From positions 666,937-730,936 of the forward strand of contig OZ246401.1 in the NCBI GenBank assembly GCA_965230965.1: 64,000 bases of DNA, read 5' to 3'. This DNA is from an uncultured Gammaproteobacteria bacterium (GTDB lineage: Bacteria > Patescibacteriota > Microgenomatia > UBA1406 > HO2-37-13b). The notes under the pieces are model-generated. The model was not told the DNA's origin. It ran no database searches and saw only the letters and a program-made list of their open reading frames with translations. Every line of letters starts with the position of its first letter. Positions within the stretch are counted from its first letter, which is position 1. Both the position numbers and the translations under genes were made by a program. Of the stretch, positions 3,476-38,717 are shown piece by piece.

Positions 3476-3491
3476 AAGGATGGGTACGTGC

Positions 3492-3521: not shown

Positions 3522-3539
3522 ATTTCCAATTAGAAGATA

Positions 3540-6496: not shown

Positions 6497-6508
6497 TGCA
6501 ATATTATA
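6497..6508 (-). promoter_or_regulatory. -10 box TATAAT placed 6 nt upstream of the aclB ATG (leaderless-type arrangement)
   Basis: Minus strand reads aagacacggtcttgTATAATattgcaATG. Confidence 0.45.
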
Positions 6509-6509
6509 C

Positions 6510-6532
6510 AAGACCGTGTCTTATTTGATCGC
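6510..6532 (-). repeat. partial copy of the conserved motif (AAGACACGGTCTT core) spanning the sortase stop and the aclB promoter
   Basis: Minus strand reads gcgatcaaataagacacggtctt, directly abutting the TATAAT box. Confidence 0.45.
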
Positions 6533-7237: not shown

Positions 7238-7251
7238 ATCATTTCATTATA
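7238..7251 (-). promoter_or_regulatory. -10 box TATAAT 8 nt upstream of the sortase ATG, preceded by the hairpin GGTCTTcgctAAGACC (7255..7270)
   Basis: Minus strand reads ggtcttcgctaagaccataTATAATgaaatgatATG. Confidence 0.4.
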
Positions 7252-7258
7252 TATGGTC

Positions 7259-15485: not shown

Positions 15486-15494
15486 TATAAGCAG

Positions 15495-15580
15495 CGGAGG
15501 TGATGGGATTCGAACCCATGAGAGGTTTTCACCTCGCAGGTTTAGCAAACCTGTGCACTAGGCCACTATGCGACACCTCC
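15495..15580 (-). tRNA. tRNA-Ser (anticodon GCT)
   Basis: Hand-folded: acceptor ggaggtg/cacctcc, anticodon stem caggt/acctg with loop ttGCTaa, long variable arm gaggt-gaaa-acctc, T-arm atggg-ttcgaat-cccat. Confidence 0.85.
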
Positions 15581-15635: not shown

Positions 15636-15702
15636 CTTTACTTCTTGACATGTTTGTCCAAAAAAATTACCATCAAATACATAGAGTAAGTTTGCATAAG
15701 CC

Positions 15703-18700
15703 ATGGTTAACAAATTGTTCAAAAAAGTTTCATCTGACCTCACTTTATTGCCTCACAAGGGTCTCTTTGTAACCCTATTTTTACTTATATCACTCTTGGT
15801 TACATTTGAACTTGCCCGTAACCCCGTCTTTAGATTGACCCGAGCTGACGAACTCAATTTGCCTGAGGGTTACTCTGCACTCGAATACTTACAAGCGTTG
15901 GGCCAAGCCGACACAAACAATGATGGCGTCATTAATCTTTTCGACTATGCTGTGCTCATGGATCAGGATTATGGAAAGCAAGACGCATTTATTACGTCTG
16001 ACGTTAATTATGATCAAAAAGCCAATGCGCTCGATGCCTCGTTCATGCTTAATCATTTTTATACCGAAGTTGACGGTGAACGTGAAAAAATCTTCTCAAG
16101 TCAACAGTACATAGATGAAATAAATAAAGAAATTGCCATGCGCAATGAAGATAAGCTTCCACAATCAAACGCTGATGACACTACGCTTTCTATCACCTCA
16201 GAAGAAGGTGGCTCTGAACCAGAATTTGGTCGTAACGTCATTCCACAAGTTTTAGGAACAGTTTCTGCATATACTGGAGCTTCTGCTTTTTCCATGAGTT
16301 TTGATGTGCCTAAAGGTCCTGGTGGTCTTGCTCCTGCGCTTGGTCTCAGCTATTCTTCTGCTTCGATTGATGATGCACGTGACAACGGCAGCGATGGCGG
16401 AAAACCTTTTTACGTCGATGCAAGCAGATACACTCCATTCCAAGCAGGTTACGGATTCTCGCTTTCTGGTGTAGGTTCAATTATCCGAGATACAAAAGGT
16501 GAGAAGGAAGTATATAAGTTGAAGGGTAATCTTTACCATCGTTATATTTTAAATCTTCCAGGAGGTATTTCAGCAGAGATGAAATATAATCCAACAACTG
16601 GTCGATGGGTTTCGATTCCACAATCTTTCATAAAAATTGAACATCGATCACCAGGAAAAGTCACCCTTGGAGCCCTAAGCTATCTTGATCCTTGGGATTG
16701 GAAGATTACGACTAAAGATGGGACGACATACTTTTTTGGCGAGGAGAATATAGAAACAAAATTAGCTGCAGATGCGCGTATTCATGGCTCAGAAGATATT
16801 CGTAATGCTGAAGGCAACCTAACTGGTACAAAGAATGGTAATCTATACGTTGAATTTGATAAAGGACAGTTATGCAAAGGTGATAGCGAACGTGATCCTT
16901 GCCGTGAAAGAGAGAAAGATGGGAAAGTCTTAATTGTGACAAAATGGCTTCTTCGCAAAGTAGAAACCGCTGATGGTCGTGCTATAAATTACACGTACGA
17001 CACACAGCAGAGTTATCTTGAAAAACCTTGGAAAGATACTTCAATTGCATTTGTTACCGCAACATCATATCCAAAGGAAATTACATGGAACGATGGAAAA
17101 CATCGTGCACGATTCGTTTTAGAAGACCGTCCTGATAAAGCTAACAATGGCTTCATGAACAATCGTATAAAGGAGGTTGTTGTAGAGACTAAACAGCAAG
17201 ATGATGATCAATATCATTTAGTTCGCCGCTACGCGCTGGGATATTTCGATTTAAATACAAAAACAAAAGACTTTTTGGGAGTAAAAGCCGGCGAAGAAAA
17301 TGAAGGTATTGCAAATGAATTTAAAGCATCATTCCTCACGTCTGTGCAAGAATTCGGTACGGACAACACGACAGCTCTACCACCAACGACGTTTAAGTAT
17401 ATACAATATGCCTTCCCACCACAGGGCTATCATGGTGGGGAGATTTATCTCTCAAATATTAATAATGGATATGGTGGCGAAACGCGATTTGCTTACCAAC
17501 CATTAACAGTAGGTGCATTTGATCCGAACGGGAAGGTTGCCCCTGGAAAAAATTGGCGTGTGCGCGTTATTCAAAAAGAAGTCGCAGATCTTGTAGCTAA
17601 TAAGTCCTCGCGTGAAACGTATACCTATGGTGATGCTGTGCAATTCGGAGAAAATTATCGCAAAGCTCCCGTTGGAGAAGGTGGATTTGCACTAGAATTT
17701 CTTGGTCATTCAAGTGTTGAAGTAAAACAGTATGATTTTGATGGTTCATTGCTTGGTCATTCCGAAACATTCTTTAATCAAGTCAATAGAGGAGAGGGCT
17801 GCTTTGAGCCCCATCCTGCAAAAGGTCAGCCATATCGTCAGGTTGTGTATCGTGGAGATGGCAAAGATATTGCTCAAGAAACGGATAGTGTCTTTCGCTA
17901 TCGACTTGATGGTCAGGATGGATTGAACCCGTCAGATGGATGTCAGAAGGATCGTAGAAACCAGCCATTGTTCCTATATGCATACGATACGACGAACGTA
18001 CAAAGAGAGCCTGCAAAAGATTTCGTACCGCTTGCATTCAAGAATAAAGTTCAGAGTGGGGGAAAGTCAGAGTTACGCACGTTGCAGAGGGTATTGGCTC
18101 ATGATGAGTATGGAAATCAAACATTATCTGTTAACTATGGTGAGGTTGATAGTAATGGCCACGATGTCGATACAAATGATAATCGTTTTTCGTACGCATA
18201 TTATTTAACGTCCGGTGAAAAATGGATAAAGGGACTCTCTAATTTAAGCTATGCATCAACGGTTCAGAATTGTGCGCCTGAAAATCTCGCCTGCCAATAT
18301 GGCCGCACAAAGTCATACTACGATAATTTTGATAAGAATTACTGGGAGTTAACGGCCGAAGAATTGCAGCCTCGATTCGGCTTCCTTACACAAAAAGAAA
18401 CATGGATTGACGATACACATGTTTCGGTTGAAGGATACGTTTACGACGATCTCTCGGGTAATAAAAATGATCAAGATCTTCGCAAGGGTGGCATCACACA
18501 AACCTATGGTCCAAAACCCAACATAAAAACCATTCAAGATGCACGAAAGGATGTCATGCTCATCTCGGAGAAGAAGTATGATCCGTATTATCACACACTC
18601 ATTTTGGAAGAAAAAAACGCTGCCGGATTTAAGAAGAATTACGAGGATTACAATATTTTAATTCAAATACCTACAACCATTAAGACACAAGTCCAAAATG

Positions 18701-20745
18701 TGCCCGAAGCTTTTGCTGTAAGTCGTATGCAATTTGATGCATTAGGTAGAATGACAGCACAATATGCGCCAGATCCAGAGAAGCTTGGTAACACGCTCGA
18801 CATACCATCATCACGAACGTACTTTTTTGAACAAGGGAATAATGGTTTGGTTATACGTAATGCACAGCTAACTTCACAAACACAAGATGGTCAACGACAC
18901 TATCAATTTTCGGACACGTTCTATGATGGTATAGGTCAAATACGACAGACTCAAGTATTGCAGACAAAAGTAGACGGTAAGGATCTAAGGAAAATAAATA
19001 ACAATGAGTACCATGCTGATGGAAGCACATCAAGAAGCTATGAGATACAAACAGCGGCACCTATGAATGTTGATATAAATAATCTCGGTGCCGTGCAGCC
19101 ACAGTATATTGCAGATGCAGCAAAAGTTGTGAATTCAGAAGTCCAATTTGATGCTTTGCGCCGTCCAGTGACAGCTACAAAAATTGAGACTCTAAGCGGC
19201 AAAAAATTCACGTCCACAACAGAATATACAATTCTTGGTTCAAAGAGCACCGATCCAAATGGTGTAGAAAAGATTGCTCTTGCTGATGTATGGGGTCGTG
19301 GAAAGTATGCCTTCACACAGGATCGCTCAAAAGAAAATGTACTTTTGACGGTCAATGAATATACAAAACCACTACTTGATAAGGCAACAAAAACAACGAT
19401 CGTTGATAAAGCAGGTACAAAAACCGAATCAATTTTTGACTACGATAAATCCGGTCGTTTGCTCTTCTCGCAGGATCCATCACTCGGTCAGTACCGCTTT
19501 GAATATGATATCTACGGAAATAAAACGCTTGAGATAAGCCAGCCACGTGAGGATGTGGGGTATGAATACGACCTACTTGGAAGATTGGTAAAAAAAACAT
19601 ACTTTAGCCTGAGTCAAGGTGAGTTATATAATAAAATGGTCAGTGACGAGGTTACCTATGACTACGATAACGGTCCATTCGCATTAGGAAAGCTAACAAA
19701 GGTACATCACCTTACAGGCTCGAAGGAATTTACCTATGACGGTGGGCAACGCCTTACAAAAACACGCATAGCTACATTCTCGAATGCTAAGGATTTCACC
19801 ACAACCTACAATCAGCTCTCTCAAGAAATAGAATCAACCTATCCTGATGGAACAAAGATCAATAAAGAATACGATCGTGAAGGAAGAGTGGTAAAGATGA
19901 AGGTCGATGGAAAAGATGTCTTTACAGGAGCAATATATGATAAGTTTGGCAACCAAAGAGTCGCACAAGTACAATTCCAAGGCACTCAATACACAAATAC
20001 AAACGATTTTGACACCTTAGGGAGACTTAAAGTGCTTGGTGTATCTAAAAAAGCAGCAGCATTTGGGGTTGGCATAGTTGATCAGGATCTTATAAAACAG
20101 AACCTAAACTACAACGACTATAGCGAAATTGACACACTTGATGAAACTGTTTCTGGGCAAACAACACTTTTTGACTACGGTTATGATGGATTCTCACAAC
20201 TTACGTCCGTTAAATCACCACTATATAACACATCGTACGAATATGATTTATTTGGTCGTATGTTAAAGAAGCAAGAAAAAGATAATGTGGTGATGAAATA
20301 TTCTTCAACATATCCATTCTTTGCCCCAAAGACAGTTGAGGTTACTGGCGAAGAGCAGACTGATGTCCAGCCAACAACTAGTCCGACCCCAGCAGTACCA
20401 ACGGCAACATTAACCCCAGTCCCGTTGCCAACAAAAGGTCCTGTTGAACAAACTCTCGGACTTACTACACGCTCGTACGACATTGGTTATACAAACGAGG
20501 GTGGTATGAAAAACGATGAAAATAACTGTTACCGTTACAATCGTGAAGGTGAATTAATCTTCTTGGGGATTAAGAAAAATAAAAAAGGCATGTGTTCAGA
20601 TGATAATTTTAAGAAAATCTACATGTTCTATTATGACGAGGGTGGAGCAATGAACTTACAAGAAGAATACGATCCGGCGAATCTACAAAAACCAACAAAG
20701 CAAATTTATCTATTTGGTCAATATGAAGAAGAGGTCACTAATTAA
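15703..20745 (+). CDS. RHS/YD-repeat shell protein with an SpvB/TcB-like N-terminal region and an N-terminal dockerin-like module; no RHS core or toxin tip
   Basis: TM anchor. Double Ca-loop DTNNDGVINLFDYAVLM / DVNYDQKANALDASFML at aa 69-118. SpvB-type FSMSFDVPKGPGGLAPALGLSYSS. YD repeats YDYDKSGRLLFSQD, FEYDIYGNKT, YEYDLLGRLVKK and YEYDLFGRM. The C-terminus ...IYLFGQYEEEVTN lacks a DPxG core motif. Confidence 0.85.
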   Translation: MVNKLFKKVSSDLTLLPHKGLFVTLFLLISLLVTFELARNPVFRLTRADELNLPEGYSALEYLQALGQADTNNDGVINLFDYAVLMDQDYGKQDAFITSDVNYDQKANALDASFMLNHFYTEVDGEREKIFSSQQYIDEINKEIAMRNEDKLPQSNADDTTLSITSEEGGSEPEFGRNVIPQVLGTVSAYTGASAFSMSFDVPKGPGGLAPALGLSYSSASIDDARDNGSDGGKPFYVDASRYTPFQAGYGFSLSGVGSIIRDTKGEKEVYKLKGNLYHRYILNLPGGISAEMKYNPTTGRWVSIPQSFIKIEHRSPGKVTLGALSYLDPWDWKITTKDGTTYFFGEENIETKLAADARIHGSEDIRNAEGNLTGTKNGNLYVEFDKGQLCKGDSERDPCREREKDGKVLIVTKWLLRKVETADGRAINYTYDTQQSYLEKPWKDTSIAFVTATSYPKEITWNDGKHRARFVLEDRPDKANNGFMNNRIKEVVVETKQQDDDQYHLVRRYALGYFDLNTKTKDFLGVKAGEENEGIANEFKASFLTSVQEFGTDNTTALPPTTFKYIQYAFPPQGYHGGEIYLSNINNGYGGETRFAYQPLTVGAFDPNGKVAPGKNWRVRVIQKEVADLVANKSSRETYTYGDAVQFGENYRKAPVGEGGFALEFLGHSSVEVKQYDFDGSLLGHSETFFNQVNRGEGCFEPHPAKGQPYRQVVYRGDGKDIAQETDSVFRYRLDGQDGLNPSDGCQKDRRNQPLFLYAYDTTNVQREPAKDFVPLAFKNKVQSGGKSELRTLQRVLAHDEYGNQTLSVNYGEVDSNGHDVDTNDNRFSYAYYLTSGEKWIKGLSNLSYASTVQNCAPENLACQYGRTKSYYDNFDKNYWELTAEELQPRFGFLTQKETWIDDTHVSVEGYVYDDLSGNKNDQDLRKGGITQTYGPKPNIKTIQDARKDVMLISEKKYDPYYHTLILEEKNAAGFKKNYEDYNILIQIPTTIKTQVQNVPEAFAVSRMQFDALGRMTAQYAPDPEKLGNTLDIPSSRTYFFEQGNNGLVIRNAQLTSQTQDGQRHYQFSDTFYDGIGQIRQTQVLQTKVDGKDLRKINNNEYHADGSTSRSYEIQTAAPMNVDINNLGAVQPQYIADAAKVVNSEVQFDALRRPVTATKIETLSGKKFTSTTEYTILGSKSTDPNGVEKIALADVWGRGKYAFTQDRSKENVLLTVNEYTKPLLDKATKTTIVDKAGTKTESIFDYDKSGRLLFSQDPSLGQYRFEYDIYGNKTLEISQPREDVGYEYDLLGRLVKKTYFSLSQGELYNKMVSDEVTYDYDNGPFALGKLTKVHHLTGSKEFTYDGGQRLTKTRIATFSNAKDFTTTYNQLSQEIESTYPDGTKINKEYDREGRVVKMKVDGKDVFTGAIYDKFGNQRVAQVQFQGTQYTNTNDFDTLGRLKVLGVSKKAAAFGVGIVDQDLIKQNLNYNDYSEIDTLDETVSGQTTLFDYGYDGFSQLTSVKSPLYNTSYEYDLFGRMLKKQEKDNVVMKYSSTYPFFAPKTVEVTGEEQTDVQPTTSPTPAVPTATLTPVPLPTKGPVEQTLGLTTRSYDIGYTNEGGMKNDENNCYRYNREGELIFLGIKKNKKGMCSDDNFKKIYMFYYDEGGAMNLQEEYDPANLQKPTKQIYLFGQYEEEVTN

Positions 20746-22237
20746 GTCGATAGCGTTGCTAACTGCGTCAGTTTTTTCACTGACGTATTTTTTTCTTATC
20801 CCGTTTGCAAGAATTAATGCTTCTCACGCTCAAAATCCTGATGTTCCACAGCCGACACGAACTCCTAATGTAGAGAAGCGCATAAGCAAAGTGTATATAC
20901 CGACGGGTGCGAGCTCCACGTTTATGAAAACAAGTGAGGGTGAAGAGAATCTTCTTATTCAAGATCACATAACTTCAACACGTATCGTTGAATCAAATAA
21001 GGGTGAGGAGCAGCAGGCATATTATCCATATGGTATGACGAATGGGGAAGCAAACACGATTTCAGATAAACAGTTTACAAGCCATCGAAGTCTTGCTGAT
21101 ACGGGCGTGTATCATGCGGGTGCTCGATTCTATAATCCACAATTGGGTGTTTTTGTATCGGCAGATAAAGTGCAGGGTCCGAATAGATATATGTATGGTG
21201 CAGCGAATCCAACGCTTTACACCGATCCATCAGGAAAAATTATTCCTATTATTATCGCAGCAATTATTATTGGCGGCGCAGCATTTGGTGCTGGCTTCGG
21301 AGCGGGCTATGAACATGGGACTCAGGTAGCAAAATACGGATCAGTTAAAGAGCCGTCAAATATTATCGTGGCAGGAGTAGCTGGCGGTGCAGTCGGTGCT
21401 GGCGCAGGATATATGGGTGCCGTGGCTATTCCGGCAGCAATAGGTGCTGTCAGTACGGGAGTTGGGGCCGCAAGTGCAGTCGGCGTTATGGGTGGAGCTC
21501 AGATTGGCGTGGCGACATGCTTGGGAAATCCTAACTGCGTTAGGGCAGTTGAGTCTGGTGCTGAAATAGCTTCAGGATCAAATCTTCCACCAGGATACAG
21601 TGCCGCAAATTATATAACCTCACCATATAATCCAGGTGAGGCTTTTTATGATCCTCGCCAAGCTTCCAAAGCCGTTGATGAGCTTGTTGACTCTGTCAAT
21701 GAAGGCCGTTCAGTATTTGGTACTGTTTTGGTTAAGGGCACTTGGCAAATTGAAACAGACTATCGAATTAGAACAAGTGATATAGCTGGTCAAGATGAAG
21801 CTATTGCTAACGATATTGTAAAACGAGTGAATAGCCAACTTGCCTATGATCTAGGCAGAGCAGACTATGCTGATGGCTTAGGCTCGCTTGATGCTTTGTG
21901 GGAAGGTGGCACAGGTGTGTGTAGGCACGCTGCTAGTTTATGCACAGGAGCTGCAATGAAAATTTGGGGGGAAGATGCAGCTGAATATTTTGCCTTTAAT
22001 CGTATTCCGAAGGGTGTTGCATCGATGGGGCAAGATGCCACAGAAGGATTTGCCGCTCATGCTGTCGCGCATATAAATACTGGCTTTTTCAATGCAACTC
22101 TAGATGCATCAAATGGTTCTCGTGGTTTAGTCACAGGAATTAGTGACCTTGAATCGTATGCCAGAAATTTTGGTCAAGTTGATGGTGGTGTGAGATACTC
22201 TTTTAACAATCGCTCTGGTTCATGGGTACAAAAATAA
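20714..22237 (+). CDS. secreted RHS-repeat-associated core protein with a variable C-terminal toxin-like domain (Gly-zipper plus transglutaminase/papain-like Cys-His-Asp)
   Basis: Signal peptide (the ATG at 20723, MKKRSLIK, may be the true start). Core: LIQDHITSTRIV..YYPYG..KQFTSHR..GVYHAGARFYNPQLGVFVSADK..GPNRYMYGAANPTLYTDPSGK. Then IIAAIIIGGAAFGAGFGAG...GAGAGYMGAV, then GTGVCRHAASL...AAHAVAHIN...LDAS. Confidence 0.75.
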   Translation: MVNMKKRSLIKSIALLTASVFSLTYFFLIPFARINASHAQNPDVPQPTRTPNVEKRISKVYIPTGASSTFMKTSEGEENLLIQDHITSTRIVESNKGEEQQAYYPYGMTNGEANTISDKQFTSHRSLADTGVYHAGARFYNPQLGVFVSADKVQGPNRYMYGAANPTLYTDPSGKIIPIIIAAIIIGGAAFGAGFGAGYEHGTQVAKYGSVKEPSNIIVAGVAGGAVGAGAGYMGAVAIPAAIGAVSTGVGAASAVGVMGGAQIGVATCLGNPNCVRAVESGAEIASGSNLPPGYSAANYITSPYNPGEAFYDPRQASKAVDELVDSVNEGRSVFGTVLVKGTWQIETDYRIRTSDIAGQDEAIANDIVKRVNSQLAYDLGRADYADGLGSLDALWEGGTGVCRHAASLCTGAAMKIWGEDAAEYFAFNRIPKGVASMGQDATEGFAAHAVAHINTGFFNATLDASNGSRGLVTGISDLESYARNFGQVDGGVRYSFNNRSGSWVQK

Positions 22238-23493
22238 TAATTCTACACGAGTGTATTGCTATAATCTGTTTTCTGGGGTTTTTTACAGGTGGTGCCAATG
22301 CCCAAGAAACGACCACTCGCCTTTATATTCCAACTTCGTCTCAAACCACACTGATTAAAGAAGGGAATGAGAGCTCTATGATAGTAAAAGATTATCTAGG
22401 TTCGACAAGGCAAAAAGATTTTTATCCATATGGTACAGACGTGAAAAATACGGCAAGTACCACGGATAGACAATTTACTGGCCATAGAAATCTTGAAGAT
22501 GCACACATCTATCATGCCGGCGCACGATTCTACAGCCCTGAACTCGGTCAATTTATTCAAGCAGACGAAGCCGAAGGCCCCCAACGATACGCCTATGCAC
22601 TTAATAATCCTGTCACACACACAGATCCAACGGGGAATTGTGTCGAATGCCAACAGGAAGAACCCCAATATATCGATATCAGCGATTATTACACACAATA
22701 TGCATTGAGTCCAGAATTTAGAGGCGCAGATATCTATCAAATGCCACCAGATCAAGGCATATCAGACAGCATTTATTATCCAGTTGTAGGAGGGGCAGCC
22801 GCAGGAGCTGTTGTTGCTGGAGGTATATACGCAGCCCCTGTGGTTGCAGGCTCAGGAGTAGTTTCTTCAATAGGTAGTGCCGCGAGCACAGCGCTCGAAT
22901 ACTCTGCGGTTCAAGGAGCCATCGGCAGTGTTGGTGTGGAAGCGATAGGGCAAGGAATTCAAGGGAAATTTGATGGGGAAAAACTTGTTACACAAGGTAT
23001 TGTAGGTGCAGTTGGTGGAAAGTGGATTGGTGCGGCTCGTGGATTTATAAGTCCACGGTATGCTAGTTTAATTGAAAAAAGCCCGGCATTGGTACGTGCC
23101 GCAGCAAATACGAAAGTTGGCCATTTGGCCTATGAGTTTACGGCAGAATCTGCAATTGTATCACCACTTATTGCGTATGGGACGGCTCACGATATGAGAA
23201 AAGTTGATGGCCCTACATTTGGAAAAGCATTTCTTACGAACTACTTAGCTACAAAAGCCGGGCTTCAAGTTGCAATGTTGGGTAGATATGGTGGAGGAAA
23301 GCTGGGTGGGGTTGTGACAAAAAAAGCTTTGAACAAAATGTTTCCTCAGATTGAGGGAATACTGACAAACACGGGGACATATTTTGGGTTAACCAATCAT
23401 CTGAGAACAAACAATTCGATCCAAGAACCACTACGAAATTTGGAGGCGGCTATTGTGAAGAGTTTTATGGGAAAGGAGTCATATGCGCACTAA
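22222..23493 (+). CDS. secreted RHS-repeat-associated core protein with a variable Gly/Ala-rich C-terminal domain
   Basis: Signal peptide ...GGANAQETTTRLYIPTS. Core: VKDYLGSTR..FYPYG..RQFTGHR..IYHAGARFYSPELGQFIQADE..GPQRYAYALNNPVTHTDPTGN. The C-terminal ~280 aa is unrelated to those of the neighbouring cassettes. Confidence 0.75.
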   Translation: MGTKIIILHECIAIICFLGFFTGGANAQETTTRLYIPTSSQTTLIKEGNESSMIVKDYLGSTRQKDFYPYGTDVKNTASTTDRQFTGHRNLEDAHIYHAGARFYSPELGQFIQADEAEGPQRYAYALNNPVTHTDPTGNCVECQQEEPQYIDISDYYTQYALSPEFRGADIYQMPPDQGISDSIYYPVVGGAAAGAVVAGGIYAAPVVAGSGVVSSIGSAASTALEYSAVQGAIGSVGVEAIGQGIQGKFDGEKLVTQGIVGAVGGKWIGAARGFISPRYASLIEKSPALVRAAANTKVGHLAYEFTAESAIVSPLIAYGTAHDMRKVDGPTFGKAFLTNYLATKAGLQVAMLGRYGGGKLGGVVTKKALNKMFPQIEGILTNTGTYFGLTNHLRTNNSIQEPLRNLEAAIVKSFMGKESYAH

Positions 23494-24688
23494 ACTGGTC
23501 GTTATTCTAACTTTTTCGTATTTATTTTTATCTGTCGTGGCAACGCAACGCGTGACTTTTGCTCAAGAAACAACTACTCGCCTTTATATTCCAACATCAA
23601 ACCAAACAATGATCGTAAAAGATGCTGCAAAAACTTCTCTTGTGGTGAAAGATTATCTTGGTTCAAGTAGGGCCGTTGACCAAAACAACACGATGCAGGT
23701 AGAGGAATATTATCCATATGGTGCGGACGTGAAAGATATGGATATTGATGTAGATCGGAAGTTTACGGGCCATCGTGAGCTCGATGACGCAGGTGTCTAT
23801 CATGCCGGAGCGAGGTTTTATAATCAGGAATTAGGTATTTTTGTGCAGGCAGATAAAGTTGAAGGACCAAATAGATATGGATATGTACAAGGGAATCCAA
23901 TAAGCAATAATGACCCAACAGGACATTCTTCAAGTAATAATATGACAGAGTCACAAAGAGTTGGAAATCCTTTACCTGATTTCCCTCATGCATTGCCGCT
24001 GCAGGATATAAGATATGCGGAACTTTATAACGACCCATTATTGCCAAAGCTCGCCGAATATTATACAAAGAAAAATCCATATGATCCCGTAAAAAATAAA
24101 AAGGAATTTGTTGAATACTTATCCAAAGATATATATGAAAGTTCATCTTATAACAAAGATCTAGCAAGAATATGGAGACAACAATCAGAAGTTGAATCAA
24201 GTATTTCATATATGAGTCATATAGATCAAAGTGATGAGAGATTTAAAAATATCCCAGTAGAAACTGAACTTCAAGATTTATATCAAGCTCAGCGGGCTTA
24301 TGATAAAGAAGAAAAACAGTATCATCGTGAGTACAAAAGTCTTTCTCTAGGTCAAAGAATGGCTAATTGCAAGTCAATCTGCGCGGATTTTACAGCATTT
24401 ACCGGTTATGTCTTAGCAAAAAATGGCATTGCAACTGCCGTTGGGGGTACCGACGATTTACAACATGCCTTTGGTGTGGTTGAAATTGGAAATGTTCCTT
24501 ATGTCTATGATACAACATGGGGCGGTGGTCAAATGCATACTTTTTTTGAAGATAGAACAGGCCAGAATAAATGGAGAAGACACTATGAAACATGGGATTT
24601 CCAAACCCCCTGGGGCAATAATTTTGAATTCAACCTACAAAATACTACGGATGAGGATAAGAACGATGGTCTCTCACCATATTATTAA
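23483..24688 (+). CDS. secreted RHS-repeat-associated core protein with a variable C-terminal transglutaminase/papain-like domain
   Basis: Signal peptide ...VTFAQETTTRLYIPTS. Core: VKDYLGSSR..YYPYG..RKFTGHR..GVYHAGARFYNQELGIFVQADK..GPNRYGYVQGNPISNNDPTGH. The C-terminus has CKSICADFTAFTGYVLAKNGI...LQHAFGVVEI...YVYDTTWG (Cys/His/Asp order). Confidence 0.75.
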   Translation: MRTKLVVILTFSYLFLSVVATQRVTFAQETTTRLYIPTSNQTMIVKDAAKTSLVVKDYLGSSRAVDQNNTMQVEEYYPYGADVKDMDIDVDRKFTGHRELDDAGVYHAGARFYNQELGIFVQADKVEGPNRYGYVQGNPISNNDPTGHSSSNNMTESQRVGNPLPDFPHALPLQDIRYAELYNDPLLPKLAEYYTKKNPYDPVKNKKEFVEYLSKDIYESSSYNKDLARIWRQQSEVESSISYMSHIDQSDERFKNIPVETELQDLYQAQRAYDKEEKQYHREYKSLSLGQRMANCKSICADFTAFTGYVLAKNGIATAVGGTDDLQHAFGVVEIGNVPYVYDTTWGGGQMHTFFEDRTGQNKWRRHYETWDFQTPWGNNFEFNLQNTTDEDKNDGLSPYY

Positions 24689-24693
24689 GATAT

Positions 24694-25647
24694 TTACTTA
24701 AACTCCAACACATCCACAATCGTCTTCGCAATGAATTTGTGGCCTTCGACGGAAGGATGAATGTTGTCACTTGGGTTGACGAGCTCGCGCTTTCCTTCTT
24801 TTACACCTTCTTGTAGTGATGGGGTATAGGCATCAATCAGTGGAACGTGTAACGTTCGTGAAAGTCCTAGTACATTTTCAAGTTGTTCAATAATCTTTTC
24901 GGTATGACTCCAAGCCGTTGACGGCTCCCAATTTACCCCATTCGGTCCAAATCCAAAACCCCGGCGCATTGGTGCAATCTCAGCAAGCATGTAGACATTA
25001 GGTGTTAGTCTCTGTGCACGTTGCACAAGTTCCGTATAGCCCAACCAGTGAGCATTTCTATCATGAGGAACAAACACATTGTAGGCAAATGAACCAACAA
25101 TAATAATGTTTGGTTTTAATTCTGTAATTGCTGGGAAGCTCCGATCCATATAGCGAAGCGGCTTGTTCCATCGTTCAAGGCCATCATGAACGTTTTGTGA
25201 GCCTACACCATAGTTGTAGAGGTGAAAGGTGGTGTGGGGATAGCGTTCAAGTAGCTCATGCTCAAGATATTCTAATCGTTCACCCATGGTGTCAACCATA
25301 GAATCACCATAAATTGCGATTGAATATTCCTGTCGTGGAGGTTGTGGATATGATGTTGGTTCGGGCGTGAGATTTTCTGTCGGTTCTTCAACATGTTCGT
25401 CTTCAGTGCCCAGGACAGCACTCTCAACAGTAGCTTCTTGTGGCTCTTTTGGTTTTTCAGCACTCGAATCTTCTTCATACGCAAGTGGAGAAGTAACAGA
25501 TGTCGGGAGTGATGCTTCTTTTAGATATGTGTTAAGGCTAATGCCACCATAGCCAAGGGCCAACATCACCAAAAATCCTGCCTGAATGGCTAAAATTCCG
25601 ATATGTTTTTTGACTGATTGCAGCGAAGGCTCGCCGAAGTTAAACAT
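24694..25647 (-). CDS. SGNH/GDSL-type hydrolase, membrane-anchored
   Basis: Block I IAIYGDSMVD and block V SDNIHPSVEGH, with an N-terminal TM helix. The first 30 aa of the ORF-track model are antisense to tRNA-Leu, so the start was moved to the ATG at 25647 (MFNFGEP). Confidence 0.75.
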   Translation of the reverse strand: MFNFGEPSLQSVKKHIGILAIQAGFLVMLALGYGGISLNTYLKEASLPTSVTSPLAYEEDSSAEKPKEPQEATVESAVLGTEDEHVEEPTENLTPEPTSYPQPPRQEYSIAIYGDSMVDTMGERLEYLEHELLERYPHTTFHLYNYGVGSQNVHDGLERWNKPLRYMDRSFPAITELKPNIIIVGSFAYNVFVPHDRNAHWLGYTELVQRAQRLTPNVYMLAEIAPMRRGFGFGPNGVNWEPSTAWSHTEKIIEQLENVLGLSRTLHVPLIDAYTPSLQEGVKEGKRELVNPSDNIHPSVEGHKFIAKTIVDVLEFK

Positions 25648-25667
25648 GCTATGAGTATAGCAAAAAA

Positions 25668-25751
25668 TGGTGCCGGAGAGAGGACTCGAACCTCCATGTC
25701 TTGCGACACACGCTTCTGAAGCGTGCGCGTCTACCATTTCGCCACCCCGGC
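25668..25751 (-). tRNA. tRNA-Leu (anticodon CAG), CCA encoded
   Basis: Hand-folded: acceptor gccgggg/ctccggc, anticodon stem cacgc/gcgtg with loop ttCAGaa, long variable arm, T-arm ggagg-ttcgagt-cctct, 3' acca. Confidence 0.85.
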
Positions 25752-26387: not shown

Positions 26388-26459
26388 GTGTGGAGGTGAG
26401 GGGAGTTGAACCCCTGCTCTTGATTTCTTGGATCAATTGCTCACCTGACACCCCCACAC
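26388..26459 (-). ncRNA. tRNA-like element lacking a canonical D-arm (degenerate tRNA or other structured RNA)
   Basis: Minus strand reads gtgtGGGGGTGtcaggtgagcaaTTGATccaagaaATCAAgagcAGGGGttcaactCCCCTCACCTCCacac. It has a good T-arm, a 7-bp acceptor extendable to 11 bp, and an anticodon-like hairpin. Only 12 nt occupy the position where a D-arm should be. Confidence 0.3.
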
Positions 26460-30322: not shown

Positions 30323-30679
30323 ATGGACTCAATAAAAGACGTTTTAAAGACATTTAATCCCACATCAGACCGCTATATATCAAGAGAATATCAATCATTT
30401 GGCGTGCATCTCGCCGAGAAACTCGGCGACGAACAACATAAGAGTTTGTATATTAAATTATCCAAACAAGTGCCGCGCCCAATGTTGTTAAAAGCGTTGC
30501 AGTTTGTGGTCGATTCGGGCGCACGTAGGAAAGGAGCGCTTTTTATGTGGAAGCTCAAGGAATTAAATGCATTTCCAGAAAAAATCAGCTCAACAAAGAA
30601 GAAAAAGGCACGATCCTCAACAAGACCTGGTCTTACTGTTCCCGACGTAGTTCAGGGTTCAATTCTGGAGCAAGATTAA
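30323..30679 (+). CDS. hypothetical protein
   Basis: ORF with a TATACT box (30307-30312) 10 nt upstream of the ATG at 30323 (MDSIKDVLK). The Lys-rich C-terminal tail overlaps the convergent gene and contains a copy of the 28-nt motif. Confidence 0.45.
   Translation: MDSIKDVLKTFNPTSDRYISREYQSFGVHLAEKLGDEQHKSLYIKLSKQVPRPMLLKALQFVVDSGARRKGALFMWKLKELNAFPEKISSTKKKKARSSTRPGLTVPDVVQGSILEQD
30607..30634 (+). repeat. copy of the conserved ~28-nt motif at a convergent gene junction
   Basis: ggcacgatcctcaacaagacctggtctt, located where the 3' ends of 30323..30679 (+) and 30633..32756 (-) overlap. Confidence 0.55.
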
Positions 30680-32756
30680 GTCTACAACCCTCACCTTTGC
30701 CGAAGTTAGCCTGCGTAAAGACGAGGTCAAATCCATTGATAATACCATCGCCATTTATATCAGAGCTATTTTGATCGGTCGGTCCAATCTCTTCTGCATA
30801 TTTTGTAGCTACAACAGAGAAATCGTTTGCATTACAGCAAGAATCTTTATTAACATCACATGCGTCAATTTCAGTTACCCCTTGCCCGGTTATGCTTCCT
30901 GCTTCTGAGGCTACGATACGATAAATGACGTTCTGGCGGAGTGGGGTGGTTACCTCATTTGGACAATTCACAGGTGTTGAACTACCTTCGAATGTAGCTC
31001 GGCACTTAACGCTGTAATCATTAATACCTTGTGGCAAGACCAAATTTGTCTCAACTGTGCCTCGTTGTCTTGGCTGGATCGAGGTATTAACAAGTTCAGA
31101 TGTGCATTGTGTTTTTCCTGGACCATAACAGGTGATTGTTGTAATACTGGTCACCGCTTTTGAGGAACCATTGTAGAAGGAAATACTTGTGTAAAAACCA
31201 GCATTTGATGTGTCTGGCGTTGGTGTTGGTGAAAATCTAGGATTTGGTGTTGCTGTTGCGCGTGGGGTTAAGCTTGGTGTAGGTGGAATTGTGGTTGGTG
31301 TTGGTGACCAGATTGGTGTTGCTGTAGGTGCGGCATTTTCACAGCTTACAGCACCAGAGCTACGTACGTTTGCCTCATTTTCTGTTGTGGGATATTTTGA
31401 TTTATCAAAGGTACACACAATCACCTGACCAGCAGGGAGTGTAATTGCATTTTCTACTTCAAAGAAATTTTGAACCAGTTCTGGTGTATCAACAGGCGCA
31501 TTGACCTCACAAATTTTATCATTTTCGTCAAATGTGCCATTACAGCGACCTAACAGCCAATAGAGTTTTTCCTCAGTTGTGCCATTGTTGTGATAGGTGA
31601 CTTTAATATTGTTGCCCGCGGCGCTTGAACTACATTGTCCGCGATTACCTTCGCTATCAGAGCCTTGTTTGTTATTTGTGTCGATTGCATGTGTACACGG
31701 ATCGAGCAAAGATCGTGCTTCGCCATCCTCTTTTCCAAGTCGCAATTCATACGTTGTGACATTGGCGGTAGGGAGTTGCAACTTAAATGTTGTTGTTTTA
31801 CCTGAAGCGCCGAGATTAATACCACATACAAATGCACCAAAATCTACATAAGAAGGCGAACAATTTGTATTGTTTATTGGTTCAATACGCACTCCCGTAT
31901 TATCTGCCTTTCCATCATCACGCTTGTAGTCGTAGAAAAGCACAAGAGCTTTTGCACCTCCTGGTGTATCATTTATTGTTAAATTCACCGTCTTATTTAT
32001 TGTCGTACCTGTACCTTTGCGTGTAATATCTGTGTTTGATGTTTTGTTTCCCTGTGCGCCACACGATTCCCAGTTAATGTCTCCTTGTTCGGTAAAATCA
32101 CAGGTCATGGCGGTTGCTTGGAACTCTGTAAAGTTAGATTTCCATGTTCCCGCAAGCTGCAGATTGACCGTTATGTCGCCTGGCTGAGCTGGAGTAGGTG
32201 ATTGATTCGGATTGTTTGTTGGTTGTGGATCGTCAGGACAGAAGTAGCTGCGACTTATTTTTCCTACCTCTGCTTGTAGCTGCCATGGTGGGCCAGCTGT
32301 GTCAACACGAATATCAAGATCGCCAGCTGGTAAACATTCAGCGCCTTCTGGCAGGCGGGTTGCCGCTGGCATATTTATAGGCGCATTAAACAAGAGCATT
32401 GGATTGCCATCTTTGCAGCGAGCAGTAGCAGGGTTTGAAACTGTCTTTTGTACACTGGCGCCAATAGGAATTTCTGGCTGCAAAAGATCGTCATGATATA
32501 TCGATACTTTCCATTTTCCATTTAATGGTGGGTTGTTGGTAAAACAAAGTCCGCCAGTTAACATATAATCCCAGCGATTATGCGGAGCCAAGCTGGTAAA
32601 TTCGATAGTTACATCTTGATTTGCCACCTCGGTTAACTCAGGTGGGACTGCAGCTTCGGTTGTTCTTTGTTGAAGCTGGGGGCTTGTTACCAAGGAGACA
32701 CCAATGATAAGTCCTAGTGTCATTATTGCTAAAACGGCTAATGATAGTGTTTTCAT
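30633..32756 (-). CDS. large secreted surface protein with a C-terminal dockerin-like module
   Basis: Signal/TM anchor. Pro/Thr linker APTATPIWSPTPTTIPPTPSLTPRATATPNPRFSPTPTPD. C-terminal double Ca-loop CDVNKDSCCNANDFSVVATKY / DINGDGIINGFDLVFTQANFG. Confidence 0.75.
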   Translation of the reverse strand: MKTLSLAVLAIMTLGLIIGVSLVTSPQLQQRTTEAAVPPELTEVANQDVTIEFTSLAPHNRWDYMLTGGLCFTNNPPLNGKWKVSIYHDDLLQPEIPIGASVQKTVSNPATARCKDGNPMLLFNAPINMPAATRLPEGAECLPAGDLDIRVDTAGPPWQLQAEVGKISRSYFCPDDPQPTNNPNQSPTPAQPGDITVNLQLAGTWKSNFTEFQATAMTCDFTEQGDINWESCGAQGNKTSNTDITRKGTGTTINKTVNLTINDTPGGAKALVLFYDYKRDDGKADNTGVRIEPINNTNCSPSYVDFGAFVCGINLGASGKTTTFKLQLPTANVTTYELRLGKEDGEARSLLDPCTHAIDTNNKQGSDSEGNRGQCSSSAAGNNIKVTYHNNGTTEEKLYWLLGRCNGTFDENDKICEVNAPVDTPELVQNFFEVENAITLPAGQVIVCTFDKSKYPTTENEANVRSSGAVSCENAAPTATPIWSPTPTTIPPTPSLTPRATATPNPRFSPTPTPDTSNAGFYTSISFYNGSSKAVTSITTITCYGPGKTQCTSELVNTSIQPRQRGTVETNLVLPQGINDYSVKCRATFEGSSTPVNCPNEVTTPLRQNVIYRIVASEAGSITGQGVTEIDACDVNKDSCCNANDFSVVATKYAEEIGPTDQNSSDINGDGIINGFDLVFTQANFGKGEGCRLNLAPELNPELRREQ

Positions 32757-32759
32757 TGT

Positions 32760-33392
32760 TTAGTCGAAAATATGTAGTGTTGCTGGCTCGGTTACTTGTA
32801 AAAGATTTTTTCCATCCTGTGCTGCGATTGTGCGGTCCTTATCGAATTGGATGACCGTCTCTTGTGTCTTCTTTAAGGCACGCGCCTTAAATTTAAGAAC
32901 GATGCCCTCTTTTTTGAACGTATTTTTGCCTGGGTCGTATGCGGCTGAAAAAGTTATGGTGCCTGGTTTTTGTTCATTAAGTATGACTCGATCAAAGACA
33001 TCGCCATTTTCAACGGTGCTGACAGCTATATACGTAGGATCATAGGTCAAAACTGTATCAACAGCATATGCGGGTGCGCCACTCATAGTCACAAAGAAGG
33101 TAATCTCTTCATTTGGCTTCATAAATTTACTTTGAGGCAAGAGGGAAAGGCGCACGCCATCTGTTTTTTCGAGGGCAGCTCCTGGGGCTGCTTCATGTAG
33201 CACATTGCGCTTAAACTTTGGTGAAAAAATAACGCCAATAAGAATGCTCAAGATAAAGAGAATAATAAGTTGAATTGCGAGCAAGAACTTAACTTGAGGG
33301 CTGAGCGTAAAAAAATCCTTTACATCTTTACGCACAGTAGTAGCGACGGTGTCCATGTATCCATTATAGAGAGATTGTGAATTGTTTGTCAA
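32760..33392 (-). CDS. membrane-anchored cohesin-like domain protein
   Basis: N-terminal TM (FLLAIQLIILFILSILIGVIF), then a ~140-aa beta-sandwich pattern: VRLSLLPQS..EEITFFVTMSGAPAYAVDTVLTYDPTYIAVSTVENGDVFDRV..GTITFSAAY..IVLKFKARALK. Confidence 0.65.
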   Translation of the reverse strand: MTNNSQSLYNGYMDTVATTVRKDVKDFFTLSPQVKFLLAIQLIILFILSILIGVIFSPKFKRNVLHEAAPGAALEKTDGVRLSLLPQSKFMKPNEEITFFVTMSGAPAYAVDTVLTYDPTYIAVSTVENGDVFDRVILNEQKPGTITFSAAYDPGKNTFKKEGIVLKFKARALKKTQETVIQFDKDRTIAAQDGKNLLQVTEPATLHIFD

Positions 33393-38682: not shown

Positions 38683-38688
38683 ACGATC

Positions 38689-38717
38689 ATTCTAGTTAAG
38701 AATAGAGGAGATTACAA
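38689..38717 (-). promoter_or_regulatory. internal promoter TTGTAA-17-TAGAAT, with the -10 box 6 nt upstream of the ATG at 38682
   Basis: Minus strand reads cTTGTAAtctcctctattcttaacTAGAATgatcgtATG. The -35 box overlaps the stop of the upstream gene. Confidence 0.45.

Follow-up and report, generated by a model that had tools for sequence, protein, structure and literature searches.

A probable split, exported RHS toxin with three alternative plug-toxin subunits in a CPR bacterium

We describe a locus that probably encodes a split, Sec-exported RHS (YD-repeat) polymorphic toxin of two components, in which alternative plug-cargo subunits would load a cocoon that delivers effectors to neighbouring cells. 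The RHS cage and the plug-plus-toxin would be exported as separate proteins, with a choice of three plug-toxins; for this well-known toxin family, such a split form is undescribed. In logic and fold, the closest known system is the TcB/TcC pair of Tc toxins.

Organization of the locus

The window, the whole stretch of 64,000 nucleotides that was analysed, comes from a tiny-genome, Microgenomates-like CPR bacterium. Directly 3′ of a 1680-aa ORF (15703-20745; the shell) lie three overlapping ORFs of 507, 423 and 401 aa (20714-22237, 22222-23493 and 23483-24688; cassettes 1 to 3). An earlier sequence-only reading had reported these sizes and consecutive overlaps of 32, 16 and 11 nt from shell to cassette 3, and the ORF coordinates bear both out. 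Cassette 1 more probably starts at the ATG at 20723, the start used in public gene calls, which makes it 504 aa long and shortens its overlap with the shell to 23 nt. The overlapping stop and start codons, together with an AGGAG Shine-Dalgarno sequence 4 nt 5′ of the cassette 3 ATG, suggest coupled translation of the cassettes. The features of the locus are as follows.

15494..15580, − strand: tRNA-Ser(GCU), left border of the locus
15645..15673, + strand: candidate operon promoter, best sigma-70-like match (TTGACA-17-TACCAT), ~30 nt 5′ of the shell start codon
15703..20745, + strand: core-less RHS/YD-repeat shell, 1680 aa, matching Pfam RHS_repeat and TIGR01643 and not TIGR03696
15703..15846, + strand: putative shell N-terminal signal peptide or signal-anchor, aa 1-48 (heuristic check only)
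15907..16056, + strand: dockerin-like duplicated Ca-binding segment, shell aa 69-118 (Pfam Dockerin_1, sub-cut-off)
20347..20451, + strand: Pro/Thr-rich insertion in the last shell repeats, aa 1549-1583, differing in length among orthologues
20764..20797, + strand: terminator-like hairpin and T-tract, 19 nt past the shell stop, within the leader-coding part of cassette 1
20723..22237, + strand: cassette 1, 504 aa from the ATG; leader 1-36, strands 56-99, core 100-172, Gly-zipper pre-toxin 173-285, tip 286-504
21020..21238, + strand: RHS-associated core of cassette 1 (TIGR03696 E 1.7e-15), with both catalytic Asp (SAD... and TDPSGK)
22222..23493, + strand: cassette 2, 423 aa; leader 1-27, strands 33-66, core 67-139, C-terminal domain 140-423
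22420..22638, + strand: RHS-associated core of cassette 2 (TIGR03696 E 2.1e-17)
23483..24688, + strand: cassette 3, 401 aa; leader 1-27, strands 33-75, core 76-148, transglutaminase-like domain 149-401
23708..23926, + strand: RHS-associated core of cassette 3 (TIGR03696 E 4.7e-17)
25668..25751, − strand: tRNA-Leu(CAG), right border of the locus jointly with a convergent GDSL-like gene
32760..33392, − strand: membrane-anchored single-cohesin protein (Pfam Cohesin E 1.7e-9; N-terminal TM helix)

The GDSL-like gene (24694 to about 25650) has its stop at 24694, next to the cassette 3 stop at 24688. The candidate promoter is a consensus match only, and the total of promoter-like sites across the region was not above shuffle expectation. 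The hairpin stem is kept in four related loci (L001, L003, L012 and L018), in L003 with one two-sided (compensatory) change, and a role as attenuator is possible. Lying just past the shell stop, it could limit transcription of the cassettes, a point we count against the split-toxin reading.

Cassette 1 is read in the +1 frame relative to the shell, whose stop codon falls within the start region of cassette 1, and the hairpin, which is stable, follows 19 nt after that stop. These are features that might accompany programmed frameshifting or similar recoding in the 23-nt overlap, by which a fraction of translations would yield a shell-cassette 1 fusion, that is, a single-chain RHS protein. We consider such recoding extremely improbable. 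The fusion would bury a 36-residue signal peptide in the cocoon wall, locus L002 has a 65-nt gap between shell and cassette instead of an overlap, cassettes 2 and 3 would be left unexplained, and no slippery motif was identified.

Modules of the cassettes and the shell

Each cassette consists of a signal-peptide-like leader, ~35-45 residues of final shell strands, an RHS core, and a distinct C-terminal domain of 250-330 aa. The TIGR03696 profile (Rhs_assc_core; cut-off 32.5 bits) matched each of the three cassettes with 57-63 bits and did not match the shell, which contains YD/RHS repeats only. This confirms the claim that each cassette has an RHS core and the upstream shell has none. The cassette 2 core aligns to the cores of TccC3, YenC2, Tse5, and SGS1. 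Catalytic Asp positions were assigned by alignment to TccC3, and both are invariant in 112 of 112 family members; they align to TccC3 D651 and D674 (residue numbering of Meusch et al. 2014). The N-strands of the cassettes are likewise conserved (YIPT...D(Y/H)LxSTR).

Signal peptides of shell and cassettes were judged by heuristics only. By these, a signal peptide of its own is predicted for each cassette, as had been proposed: a charged n-region, a hydrophobic core, and an (A/S)xA|Q site occur in 3/3 cassettes and in their orthologues. The string AQETTTRLYIPTS, said to be common to cassettes 2 and 3, is present in both. A leader is found on every cassette; leader sequences differ among strain variants, with the AxA|QETTT junction kept (e.g. 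in cassette 2). The shell N-terminus combines a positively charged n-region, a hydrophobic 15-mer (mean Kyte-Doolittle 2.79), and a TRA|DE site.

The dockerin-like segment of the shell reads DTNNDGVINLFD...DVNYDQKANALD and matches Pfam Dockerin_1 with E 4e-4 to 1.7e-3, under the family cut-off. PF00404 was also found on P0018, a shell relative. Six dockerin proteins are encoded at 30633-45679, and the cohesin protein at 32760..33392 might be the surface partner onto which the dockerin-like N-terminus of the shell docks. An AlphaFold model of shell aa 604-1680 (pLDDT 80-93) had the TcdB2-TccC3 cocoon as its best Foldseek match (E 1.7e-33, TMq 0.52-0.57), and there was a weak hint of an SpvB domain. 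The Pro/Thr-rich insertion is missing from L002/P0015 and P0012, much longer in P0018, and disordered in models.

Conservation of the two-gene arrangement

Across about a dozen assemblies with 35-79% shell identity, shells end at a common YxFGxYEE(E/I) motif. Wherever the contig extends past the shell, 1-3 leader-bearing cassettes follow with no gene between. This split with 1-3 cassettes recurs in L001, L002, L003/L004, L006/L007, L008, L012, L014, L015, and L018, while in L009 and L010 a leader-bearing cassette start is visible after the shell stop. No RHS core was found in a scan of the shell homologues at 35-61% identity, and those at 67-79% identity stop at the YxFGxYEE motif.

We take the common shell end and the leader-bearing cassettes over about a dozen assemblies to mean that the split is no artefact. 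The OLB23 MAG, in which the shell is broken into three ORFs, shows that errors or decay can happen. Nevertheless, we give hardly any credence to explaining the split by a single RHS gene that has become a pseudogene or carries a frameshift from assembly or sequencing: the stop position, with a leader after it, is the same in about a dozen independent assemblies at 35-79% identity, and a frameshift would not produce the canonical signal peptide seen there.

The single-chain relative P0040 matches shell and cassette collinearly on both sides of the junction. Shell aa 800-1561 are covered by its residues 29-840 (31% identity, E 4e-95) and the cassettes, from (R/K)LYIP on, by its residues 908-1031 (45-47% identity). 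Its junction reads FGQLEKEKQADGSYSRKLYIP, compared with FGQYEEEVTN(stop) and the mature cassette start QETTTRLYIP in the window. A PDB profile search did not bridge the junction by sequence.

The sequence-only reading had proposed that the core-less shell is served by the cassettes as interchangeable plug-plus-cargo subunits. This is well supported by comparison, as the split is conserved to 35% identity, P0040 is collinear, the Asp residues are invariant, and each shell is accompanied by 1-3 cassettes. Physical assembly, the other part of the proposal, was not recovered: in two AlphaFold2 runs on a shell(604-1680)-cassette 2 fusion, the junction strands had pLDDT <50 and docking was not resolved.

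This lack of docking would also suit cassettes that are autonomous secreted pro-toxins, with strands and core acting only as a self-cleaving pro-domain or chaperone and the shell being a separate, cassette-independent surface protein. We think this unlikely, though it has further points in its favour. The distant family member P0036 is away from any visible shell: its neighbours are rplA and a tRNA-synthetase gene, and no shell lies directly 5′ of it on a contig of only 3 kb. Moreover, the family of short cassette proteins is sizeable, since among the best 147 cluster representatives matching the cassette module 141 are at most 700 aa long (130 carry the module in the first 100 residues), and shell linkage was checked in nearer relatives only. 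Against autonomy, a cassette lies directly 3′ of every core-less shell with downstream DNA, often with overlapping codons, and no function is known for a shell devoid of plug or cargo. The N-strands of the cassettes have homologous, collinear counterparts among the shell strands of P0040, and conservation of these N-strands would be unexpected of an unneeded remnant. The C-terminal domains also show a length ceiling of ~330 aa. Past DPxG they have a median of 248 aa and a maximum of 327 aa in the best 147 representatives, lengths that fit a cargo-size limit.

Tip domains and their exchange

Effector-type C-terminal domains in the family include Tae4, Peptidase_M23, GNAT, AvrPphF-ORF-2, Kdo-type kinase, trypsin-like, and transglutaminase-like domains. 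The cassette 3 domain had been read as transglutaminase-like, to which two weak matches point: Pfam DUF553 at E 0.003, under the cut-off, and PDB 9crn_A, which a profile of the domain matched at E 0.0026, the Cys, His, and Asp being aligned. A similar papain/transglutaminase-like assignment for cassette 1 fared less well; the motif is there, but the C-terminal domain matched no family and no PDB entry, and hhalign against the cassette-3 family gave 1.9% probability. The Gly-zipper stretch noted in cassette 1 is present as well, but belongs to the conserved pre-toxin module and not to the variable toxin. Homologues of the cassette 1 tip are P0011, P0025, and P0027, and the tip variants P0028 and P0029 are carried on an N-module identical over the shared part. 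The C-terminal domain of cassette 2 is Gly/Ala-rich and hydrophobic, with homologues in P0004, P0030, and L001 cassette 2, and matched no known family.

Comparison of the sequences clearly points to exchange of tips by recombination. Loci L006 and L003, from 97%-identical strains, share 97.6% identity up to the DPxG codons and 96.4% from the stop codon on, over 10 kb. The replaced DNA runs from the DPxG site to the stop codon only, and there is no other gene change within 10 kb.

Clear recombinational exchange, like tandem units with a common core-coding homology block, is also a trait of classical Rhs orphan arrays, in which downstream units are silent spare tips for recombination into the main gene. 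It is very unlikely that the cassettes are such an array. Here the "main gene" itself lacks core and tip (in the shell homologues scanned, 35-61% identity), each unit has a start codon and leader (with a Shine-Dalgarno sequence on cassette 3), leader function is conserved despite diverged leader sequence, and the units come with no immunity genes.

Indeed, no credible immunity ORF was found between or inside the cassettes, and the last of them stops at 24688, next to the convergent GDSL-like stop at 24694, in line with the earlier claim that immunity genes are missing here. Linked immunity genes were absent at every locus compared, and the clean tip swap between 97%-identical strains involved no accompanying gene. 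A target in another organism, with the toxins directed at a host, is plausible and consistent with these absences. For a host Actinobacterium in particular there is no support, the named relative being a MAG of Microgenomates (OLB23) and not of Saccharibacteria.

Proposed mechanism

Under the split-toxin reading, the 1680-aa gene would encode a cocoon that lacks its last strands and plug and has its own leader or anchor, plus a dockerin-like segment through which it may attach to the membrane-anchored cohesin, whose gene lies 12 kb away. Each translationally coupled cassette precursor would comprise a cleavable signal peptide, ~35-45 shell-strand residues, a core acting as aspartyl autoprotease and plug, and a 250-330-aa effector. 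Shell and cassette would be exported separately, and one cassette would complete one shell by strand complementation. The C-terminal domain of the cassette would then be enclosed and cut at DPxG, and the loaded cocoon, displayed on the surface, would pass its effector into a neighbouring cell. Three cassettes and one shell gene could thus give three holotoxins, with tips swapped by recombination at the core/tip boundary. Leader cleavage, extracellular assembly, encapsulation, autoproteolysis, tethering at the surface, delivery, and target are inferred. Two further points count against the split-toxin reading. In known RHS toxins the C-terminus is believed to become enclosed as the single chain folds, and we know of no precedent for a separately exported 30-kDa domain being threaded into a shell outside the cell.

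Comparison with known RHS systems

The BC cocoon of Tc (ABC) toxins is formed by TcB and TcC, for example TcdB2-TccC3 and YenB-YenC2 (PDB 4O9X, 4IGL; bioRxiv 10.1101/590430; PMC11435725). As proposed here, it is an RHS cocoon made from two polypeptides, and the C subunit brings both the RHS core, an aspartyl autoprotease, and a hypervariable toxin of ~30 kDa. One B subunit can be served by any of several alternative C subunits, again with no immunity genes, and this cocoon was the best structural match of the predicted shell model. The two differ in that TcC gives ~650 shell residues, versus ~35-45 from a cassette here. As far as we know, Tc toxins are put together in the cytoplasm from subunits without Sec leaders, whereas here both partners have leaders. 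The organism is also different, being a CPR bacterium with a dockerin/cohesin context, and no TcA-type family was matched among the ~35 window ORFs scanned against Pfam.

The Sec-exported single-chain RHS toxins of Gram-positive bacteria, namely WapA of Bacillus subtilis and Streptococcus suis (PMC12704120), and the teneurin-like proteins of bacteria (PMC13018210) share an N-terminal Sec leader, a surface YD shell, a core with the DPxG cleavage motif, and polymorphic C-terminal toxins. However, each is a single polypeptide whose gene is followed by a cognate immunity gene, unlike the separate leader-bearing genes without an immunity gene found here. The orphan rhs-CT/immunity cassettes downstream of classical Rhs genes (PMC3150448; PMC3482391) are similarly tandem units, with core-coding homology first and different toxins last, whose tips are replaced by recombination. 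In contrast to the cassettes, they have no translation or secretion signals of their own, stand behind a complete main gene, and form toxin-immunity pairs; none of these three features is found here. The T6SS Rhs effectors RhsA (7Q97; PMC8765631) and Tse5 (PMC9637101) have the same cocoon fold and core sequence, but are single-chain with immunity genes, and the locus has no PAAR, VgrG, or T6SS context. By analogy, the Gly-zipper pore-forming C-terminal domain of Tse5 is reminiscent of the Gly-rich modules in cassettes 1 and 2.

Organization of the split RHS locus

The RHS locus comprises a shell gene, which encodes a core-less RHS/YD-repeat protein, followed by three overlapping genes here called cassettes 1, 2, and 3. 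Each cassette encodes a leader, the last strands of a shell, an RHS core, and a variable C-terminal domain (the tip). The window containing the locus is part of a 938,475-bp NCBI contig.

15494-15580, tRNA-Ser, left border of the locus
15703-20745, + strand, shell, 1680-aa ORF
20714-22237 (ORF) or 20723-22237 (from the ATG), + strand, cassette 1; the ATG at 20723 is the start in public gene calls
20764-20797, + strand, terminator-like hairpin GCGTCAGT-TTTTTC-ACTGACG plus T-tract, within the signal-peptide coding part of cassette 1
22222-23493, + strand, cassette 2
23483-24688, + strand, cassette 3
25668-25751, - strand, tRNA-Leu, right border of the locus

The sequence-only reading had described the three cassettes correctly: its ORFs, overlaps, leaders, and cores were all recovered, with nothing credible between them. 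Consecutive ORFs overlap by 32 nt (23 nt with the cassette 1 ATG at 20723), 16 nt, and 11 nt. An AGGAG sequence stands 4 nt 5' of the cassette 3 ATG, and the promoter-like site ranking best in the region lies approximately 30 nt 5' of the shell ATG. The DNA sequence of the hairpin, 19 nt past the shell stop, is preserved in four related loci (L001, L003, L012, and L018); L003 has one compensatory two-sided change, and codons on either side differ synonymously. As a possible attenuator, it could set the ratio of shell to cassette.

The cassette 3 stop at 24688 faces the stop of a convergent GDSL-like gene at 24694. This gene (24694-25737, - strand) adjoins the right side of the RHS locus in every close relative. 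As a mechanical 347-aa ORF it runs into the tRNA-Leu gene; since its orthologues are 311-323 aa, its real start is probably near 25650 or further downstream.

Within the shell, RHS/YD repeats were detected by Pfam RHS_repeat (E 6e-11) and TIGR01643 (E 2e-11), and the N-terminus has its own hydrophobic stretch. A dockerin-like duplicated segment at residues 69-118 scored below the Pfam cut-off (20.9 versus 22.9 bits), and an SpvB-domain match at residues 411-478 was sub-threshold (E 0.0022). A Pro/Thr-rich insertion in the last repeats (20347-20451, + strand) is highly variable in length among homologues: it is missing in L002/P0015 and P0012, and in P0018 it is expanded along with a Cys-rich segment.

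The RHS-associated core was found where it had been placed from the sequence, in the cassettes. TIGR03696 matched every cassette at 57-63 bits (cut-off 32.5), at residues 103-174 (cassette 1), 67-138 (cassette 2), and 76-148 (cassette 3), and was absent from the shell in the same model scan. Leaders were called heuristically from a charged n-region, a hydrophobic stretch, and a cleavage-site pattern; by this call, all three N-termini carry these elements with an (A/S)xA|Q site. A conserved (R/K)(L/V)YIPT...D(Y/H)(L/I)xS(T/S)R segment begins 5-20 residues past the leader site, ahead of the core, and only approximately 35-45 shell-like residues precede the core. The two catalytic Asp residues (those of QAD and of the DPxG cleavage motif) are invariant in an alignment of 112 relatives and align to TccC3, YenC2, and Tse5. 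We take this pair to be D651 and D674 of TccC3 (Meusch et al. 2014).

Arrays of core-plus-tip units behind an RHS gene recall classical silent orphan units. The likeness to orphan rhs-CT arrays is in layout only, and we regard this explanation as very improbable. As the sequence-only reading had pointed out, the cassettes differ from orphan rhs-CT units in having start codons (ATG) and predicted leaders. Cassette 3 also has a Shine-Dalgarno sequence, and no immunity genes accompany the cassettes, whereas orphan units are paired with them.

Conservation of the split

With cassette 3 as query, all proteins returned were short (360-663 aa), one of them from Microgenomates bacterium OLB23. Related loci in other assemblies repeat the arrangement of the window, with one to three cassettes behind a shell.

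Table. Shell and cassette lengths at related loci.
L001 (OLB23): fragmented shell + 491 + 418 + 391 aa
L002: shell 1659 aa + 448 + 417 aa
L003 / L004: shell 1713 aa + 466 + 478 + 416 aa
L006 / L007: shell end + 466 + 478 + 395 aa
L008 (shell identity 43%): shell 1853 aa + 494 aa
L012: shell 1695 aa + 479 + 448 aa
L014: shell end + 681 aa
L015: shell 1673 aa + single 441-aa cassette
L018: shell 1651 aa + 496 + 463 aa

In two further loci, L009 and L010 (shell identity 43% and 35%), the contig stops just past the shell, where one can already see another leader and, after it, ...LFIPF or ...SRLSL. All shells end in the same YxFGxYEE(E/I)xx motif and then a stop, and TIGR03696 was found in no shell homologue scanned. 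This conservation indicates that the split is neither an error nor a recent pseudogene, and we give a pseudogene or assembly artefact very little credence. Recoding could in principle fuse the shell to the cassette 1 ORF that overlaps it, a prospect that we consider just as remote. The stop codon after YLFGQYEEEVTN is kept in all orthologues, and shell, core, and toxin do not share one polypeptide.

Several features of individual records merit mention. The OLB23 shell (2166-7228) lies in three ORFs (979 + 516 + 153 aa) and a DUF2207 neighbour is also fragmented, reflecting either assembly errors or decay in the OLB23 MAG. In L009, the interval from the shell stop to the next cassette start (approximately 11505-11640) contains two copies of a 28-nt direct repeat, CTGTCATCCTGAACTGGTTTCAGGATCT, which itself includes an inverted repeat. 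Loci L012, L013, and L014 are syntenic with OLB23 (60-79% shell identity) and are titled "uncultured Gammaproteobacteria bacterium", while L015 is titled Saccharibacteria; these titles are probably automatic mislabels of CPR MAGs. Taxonomy here rests on one named relative, OLB23.

Junction of shell and cassette

A single-chain relative, P0040 (1294 aa, from a representative search), is collinear with the split proteins. Its residues 29-840 align to shell residues 800-1561 (31% identity, E 4e-95), and its residues 908-1031 align to all three cassettes from (R/K)LYIP on (45-47% identity). At the junction P0040 has ...TIFGQLEKEKQADGSYSRKLYIPLTS..., where the window has a shell ending in ...IYLFGQYEEEVTN(stop) and a mature cassette predicted to start with QETTTRLYIPTSS.... 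Comparison of the two places the break within one loop, whose length is about restored when the shell C-terminus and mature cassette N-terminus are taken together. From this alignment, a leader would in effect have been inserted at a break in a single RHS protein. In a PDB search with a profile of the shell C-terminus plus the cassette N-terminal part containing the core (the N-module), no chain aligned through the junction; the matches were separate and local, to the repeats and to the core.

Shell residues 604-1680, fused to mature cassette 2, were modelled in two AlphaFold2 runs. With 18 alignment rows, mean pLDDT was 66.9 and the cassette part fell below 50. With 60 rows, among them fused relatives and 45 cassette modules, mean pLDDT rose to 74.8 (pTM 0.65). 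In this second run the shell reached pLDDT 80-93 and the core only 64-75, and the last repeats, the junction (residues 1058-1128), and the cassette strands stayed below 50. The closest structural match of the shell model was the TcdB2-TccC3 cocoon (E 1.7e-33, TMq 0.52-0.57), followed by T6SS Rhs cores, a bacterial teneurin-like protein, and teneurins.

Tip exchange and linked immunity genes

Two near-identical loci, L006 and L003, reveal the unit of exchange. They share 97.6% identity over the end of the shell, cassettes 1 and 2, and the cassette 3 N-module as far as the DPxG codons. The tips that follow have no similarity (773 versus 840 nt; transglutaminase-like versus trypsin-like), and past the stop codon identity returns to 96.4% for the next 10 kb. 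By this comparison, the tip alone was replaced, with no change in gene content within 10 kb.

Cassette 1 tells a similar story. P0028 and P0029 carry its N-module, identical over the shared part, with two other tips; divergence starts within the Gly-rich helices and is complete past an (A/S)(D/N)LPPG motif. The Gly-zipper stretch also occurs in L001, L003, and P0024-P0027. The sequence-only reading had counted these helices as part of the variable toxin, but their constancy under differing tips marks them as a conserved pre-toxin module instead. Among cassette 2 variants, the leader sequence itself is unrelated and the AxA|QETTT junction is the same, which argues for selection on leader function.

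The claim that no immunity genes lie between the cassettes held on three counts. A search of both strands of 20700-24700 for ORFs of at least 40 aa returned no credible immunity ORF between or within cassettes (those besides the cassettes were antisense, low-complexity, and inside coding sequence only), no related locus has a gene between cassettes, and the tip swap came without a gene-content change. Pfam scans of the other window ORFs likewise found no known immunity family. With no immunity genes at hand, targets that are not kin would fit. Zhang et al. 2012 (PMC3482391) remark that effectors aimed at hosts look like polymorphic toxins yet have no immunity genes.

Of the three tips in the window, that of cassette 3 is probably transglutaminase-like, judging from its profile matches. 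A profile of six homologues aligned to the transglutaminase-like structure 9crn_A (E 0.0026), including the Cys, His, and Asp residues, in keeping with the earlier assignment; the Pfam DUF553 match remained below cut-off (E 0.003, 17.5 versus 20.5 bits), and in three relatives it reached E 2e-6. For cassette 1, the proposed papain/transglutaminase-like pattern stood as a motif, the GxGxCRH...HAV...D residues being conserved (P0011, P0025, and P0027 are 55-57% identical), but not as a homology: neither Pfam nor PDB gave a match, and comparison of the cassette 1 and cassette 3 tip families was not significant (hhalign, 1.9% probability). The cassette 2 domain, described earlier as Gly/Ala-rich and without known family, again matched no family. 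It is largely hydrophobic, has homologues in OLB23, P0004, and P0030, and might, as a guess, be membrane-active.

A family of short cassettes

A profile of the cassette N-module matched 75,485 proteins at E <=1e-3, essentially all RHS cores. Nearly all of the 150 best cluster representatives were short: 141 of the 147 examined had 700 aa or fewer, and the module lay within the first 100 residues in 130 of the 147. A Met and hydrophobic leader stood at the start of 70 of the 83 representatives with a complete module. Past DPxG, the C-terminal part of the best representatives had a median length of 248 aa and a maximum of 327 aa, a ceiling that would fit a cocoon limiting the size of its cargo.

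Most C-terminal domains of the family had no family match. Those that did were effector types: GNAT (3), DUF553 transglutaminase-like (3), Peptidase_M23 (2), NTP_transf_2 (2), Tae4, AvrPphF-ORF-2, polysaccharide lyase, Kdo-type kinase, and PT-TG. The syntenic loci add trypsin-like, HExxH, and kinase-like tips. The Tae4 and M23 tips suggest bacterial targets.

Shell linkage of more distant cassettes was followed on two short contigs. In L019, two cassettes are again adjacent (gap 20 nt). In L020, the cassette P0036 is flanked by rplA, a tRNA synthetase gene, and an ORF of 159 aa; the 3-kb contig has no shell directly before it. Cassettes might thus be autonomous secreted pro-toxins, each with its own predicted leader, core, and tip. 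Set beside this are the shells of the close loci and the few shell-like strands that a cassette brings, and we consider autonomy unlikely.

Two sets of cluster representatives have identical leaders and N-modules and differ in length: P0051/P0054/P0055 (270/362/447 aa) and P0070/P0082/P0083 (415/326/283 aa). This pattern suggests that in distant lineages, too, tips vary on a constant N-module; some of the sequences could come from truncated genes.

A possible two-component toxin

We favour, as somewhat better than an even bet, a two-component RHS toxin in which shell and cassette precursors would leave the cell via Sec and one shell gene would serve one to three alternative cassettes. The cassette, after leader cleavage, would bring the shell its final strands along with plug-protease and cargo, and autoproteolysis would free the encapsulated tip. 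The loaded cocoon, probably displayed on the cell surface, would then pass its effector to a neighbouring cell.

Functionally, the nearest system is the Tc BC cocoon. Both have two chains, the second with core and hypervariable region (here known from gene architecture), and both have alternative C subunits without immunity genes. They differ in that TcC contributes approximately 650 aa of shell and a cassette only 35-45, and that Sec leaders are predicted here on both parts. Among the approximately 35 window ORFs scanned against Pfam (genome 0.94 Mb), no match to a TcA-like family was seen, and the sub-threshold SpvB-domain match of the shell is a weak hint towards TcB, which has a beta-propeller gate. 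WapA and bacterial teneurin-like proteins share Sec export and surface display with the proposed system; unlike the present proteins, they are single chains with immunity genes.

A neighbouring gene cluster includes a candidate surface dock for the dockerin-like segment of the shell.

30633-45679, - strand, cohesin/dockerin cluster: one single-cohesin protein and six proteins with clear dockerins, two with VWA
32760-33392, - strand, single-cohesin protein, membrane-anchored by an N-terminal TM helix, 12 kb from the shell gene

From its domains, this cluster would form a cellulosome-like set for surface display in a genome of CPR type. We hold a further step only tentatively: that the core-less shell, tethered to the outside of an ultra-small, episymbiotic CPR cell, is completed after secretion by any of several subunits of strands, plug, and cargo that are exported separately from it, giving combinatorial contact-dependent toxins without immunity genes. 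Immunity would then be unneeded because the toxins would never fold inside the producer and would be aimed at another organism, host or competitor. Were this so, the hundred-plus short cassette clusters would show us just a part of a two-component RHS system that is widespread and has gone unrecognised.

In current understanding, the C-terminal toxin of an RHS, Tc, or teneurin cocoon is trapped by the cocoon as it folds, from one chain or, in Tc toxins, from two cytoplasmic chains. If confirmed, the present system would be a cocoon loadable in trans outside the cell, and its module of approximately 110 residues would offer a natural minimal "plug + cargo" unit for loading foreign proteins into RHS cages. 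It would also give CPR/Patescibacteria, about whose ways of attacking or exploiting partner cells little is known, a candidate weapon or device for interacting with hosts. That no immunity gene is linked, even with tips swapped between near-identical strains, breaks with the rule of toxin-immunity pairing in polymorphic toxin systems. A search of open-access full-text literature found no description of a split or leader-bearing RHS core protein, or of RHS in CPR.

Other features of the window

A sortase gene adjoins one for a PEGA-domain protein (6521-8497, - strand), suggesting Gram-positive-type surface protein anchoring. A fourth tRNA-like match (26391-26455, - strand) was found by Rfam only (33.5 bits, just over the gathering score) and was not reported by ARAGORN. 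Two adjacent genes at 3540-6511 (- strand) encode Citrate_bind, Citrate_synth_N, Ligase_CoA, and Citrate_synt domains, an ATP-citrate-lyase-type set unexpected for a genome of <1 Mb with reduced metabolism, and a pyruvate:ferredoxin oxidoreductase beta-type gene lies at 2167-3009.
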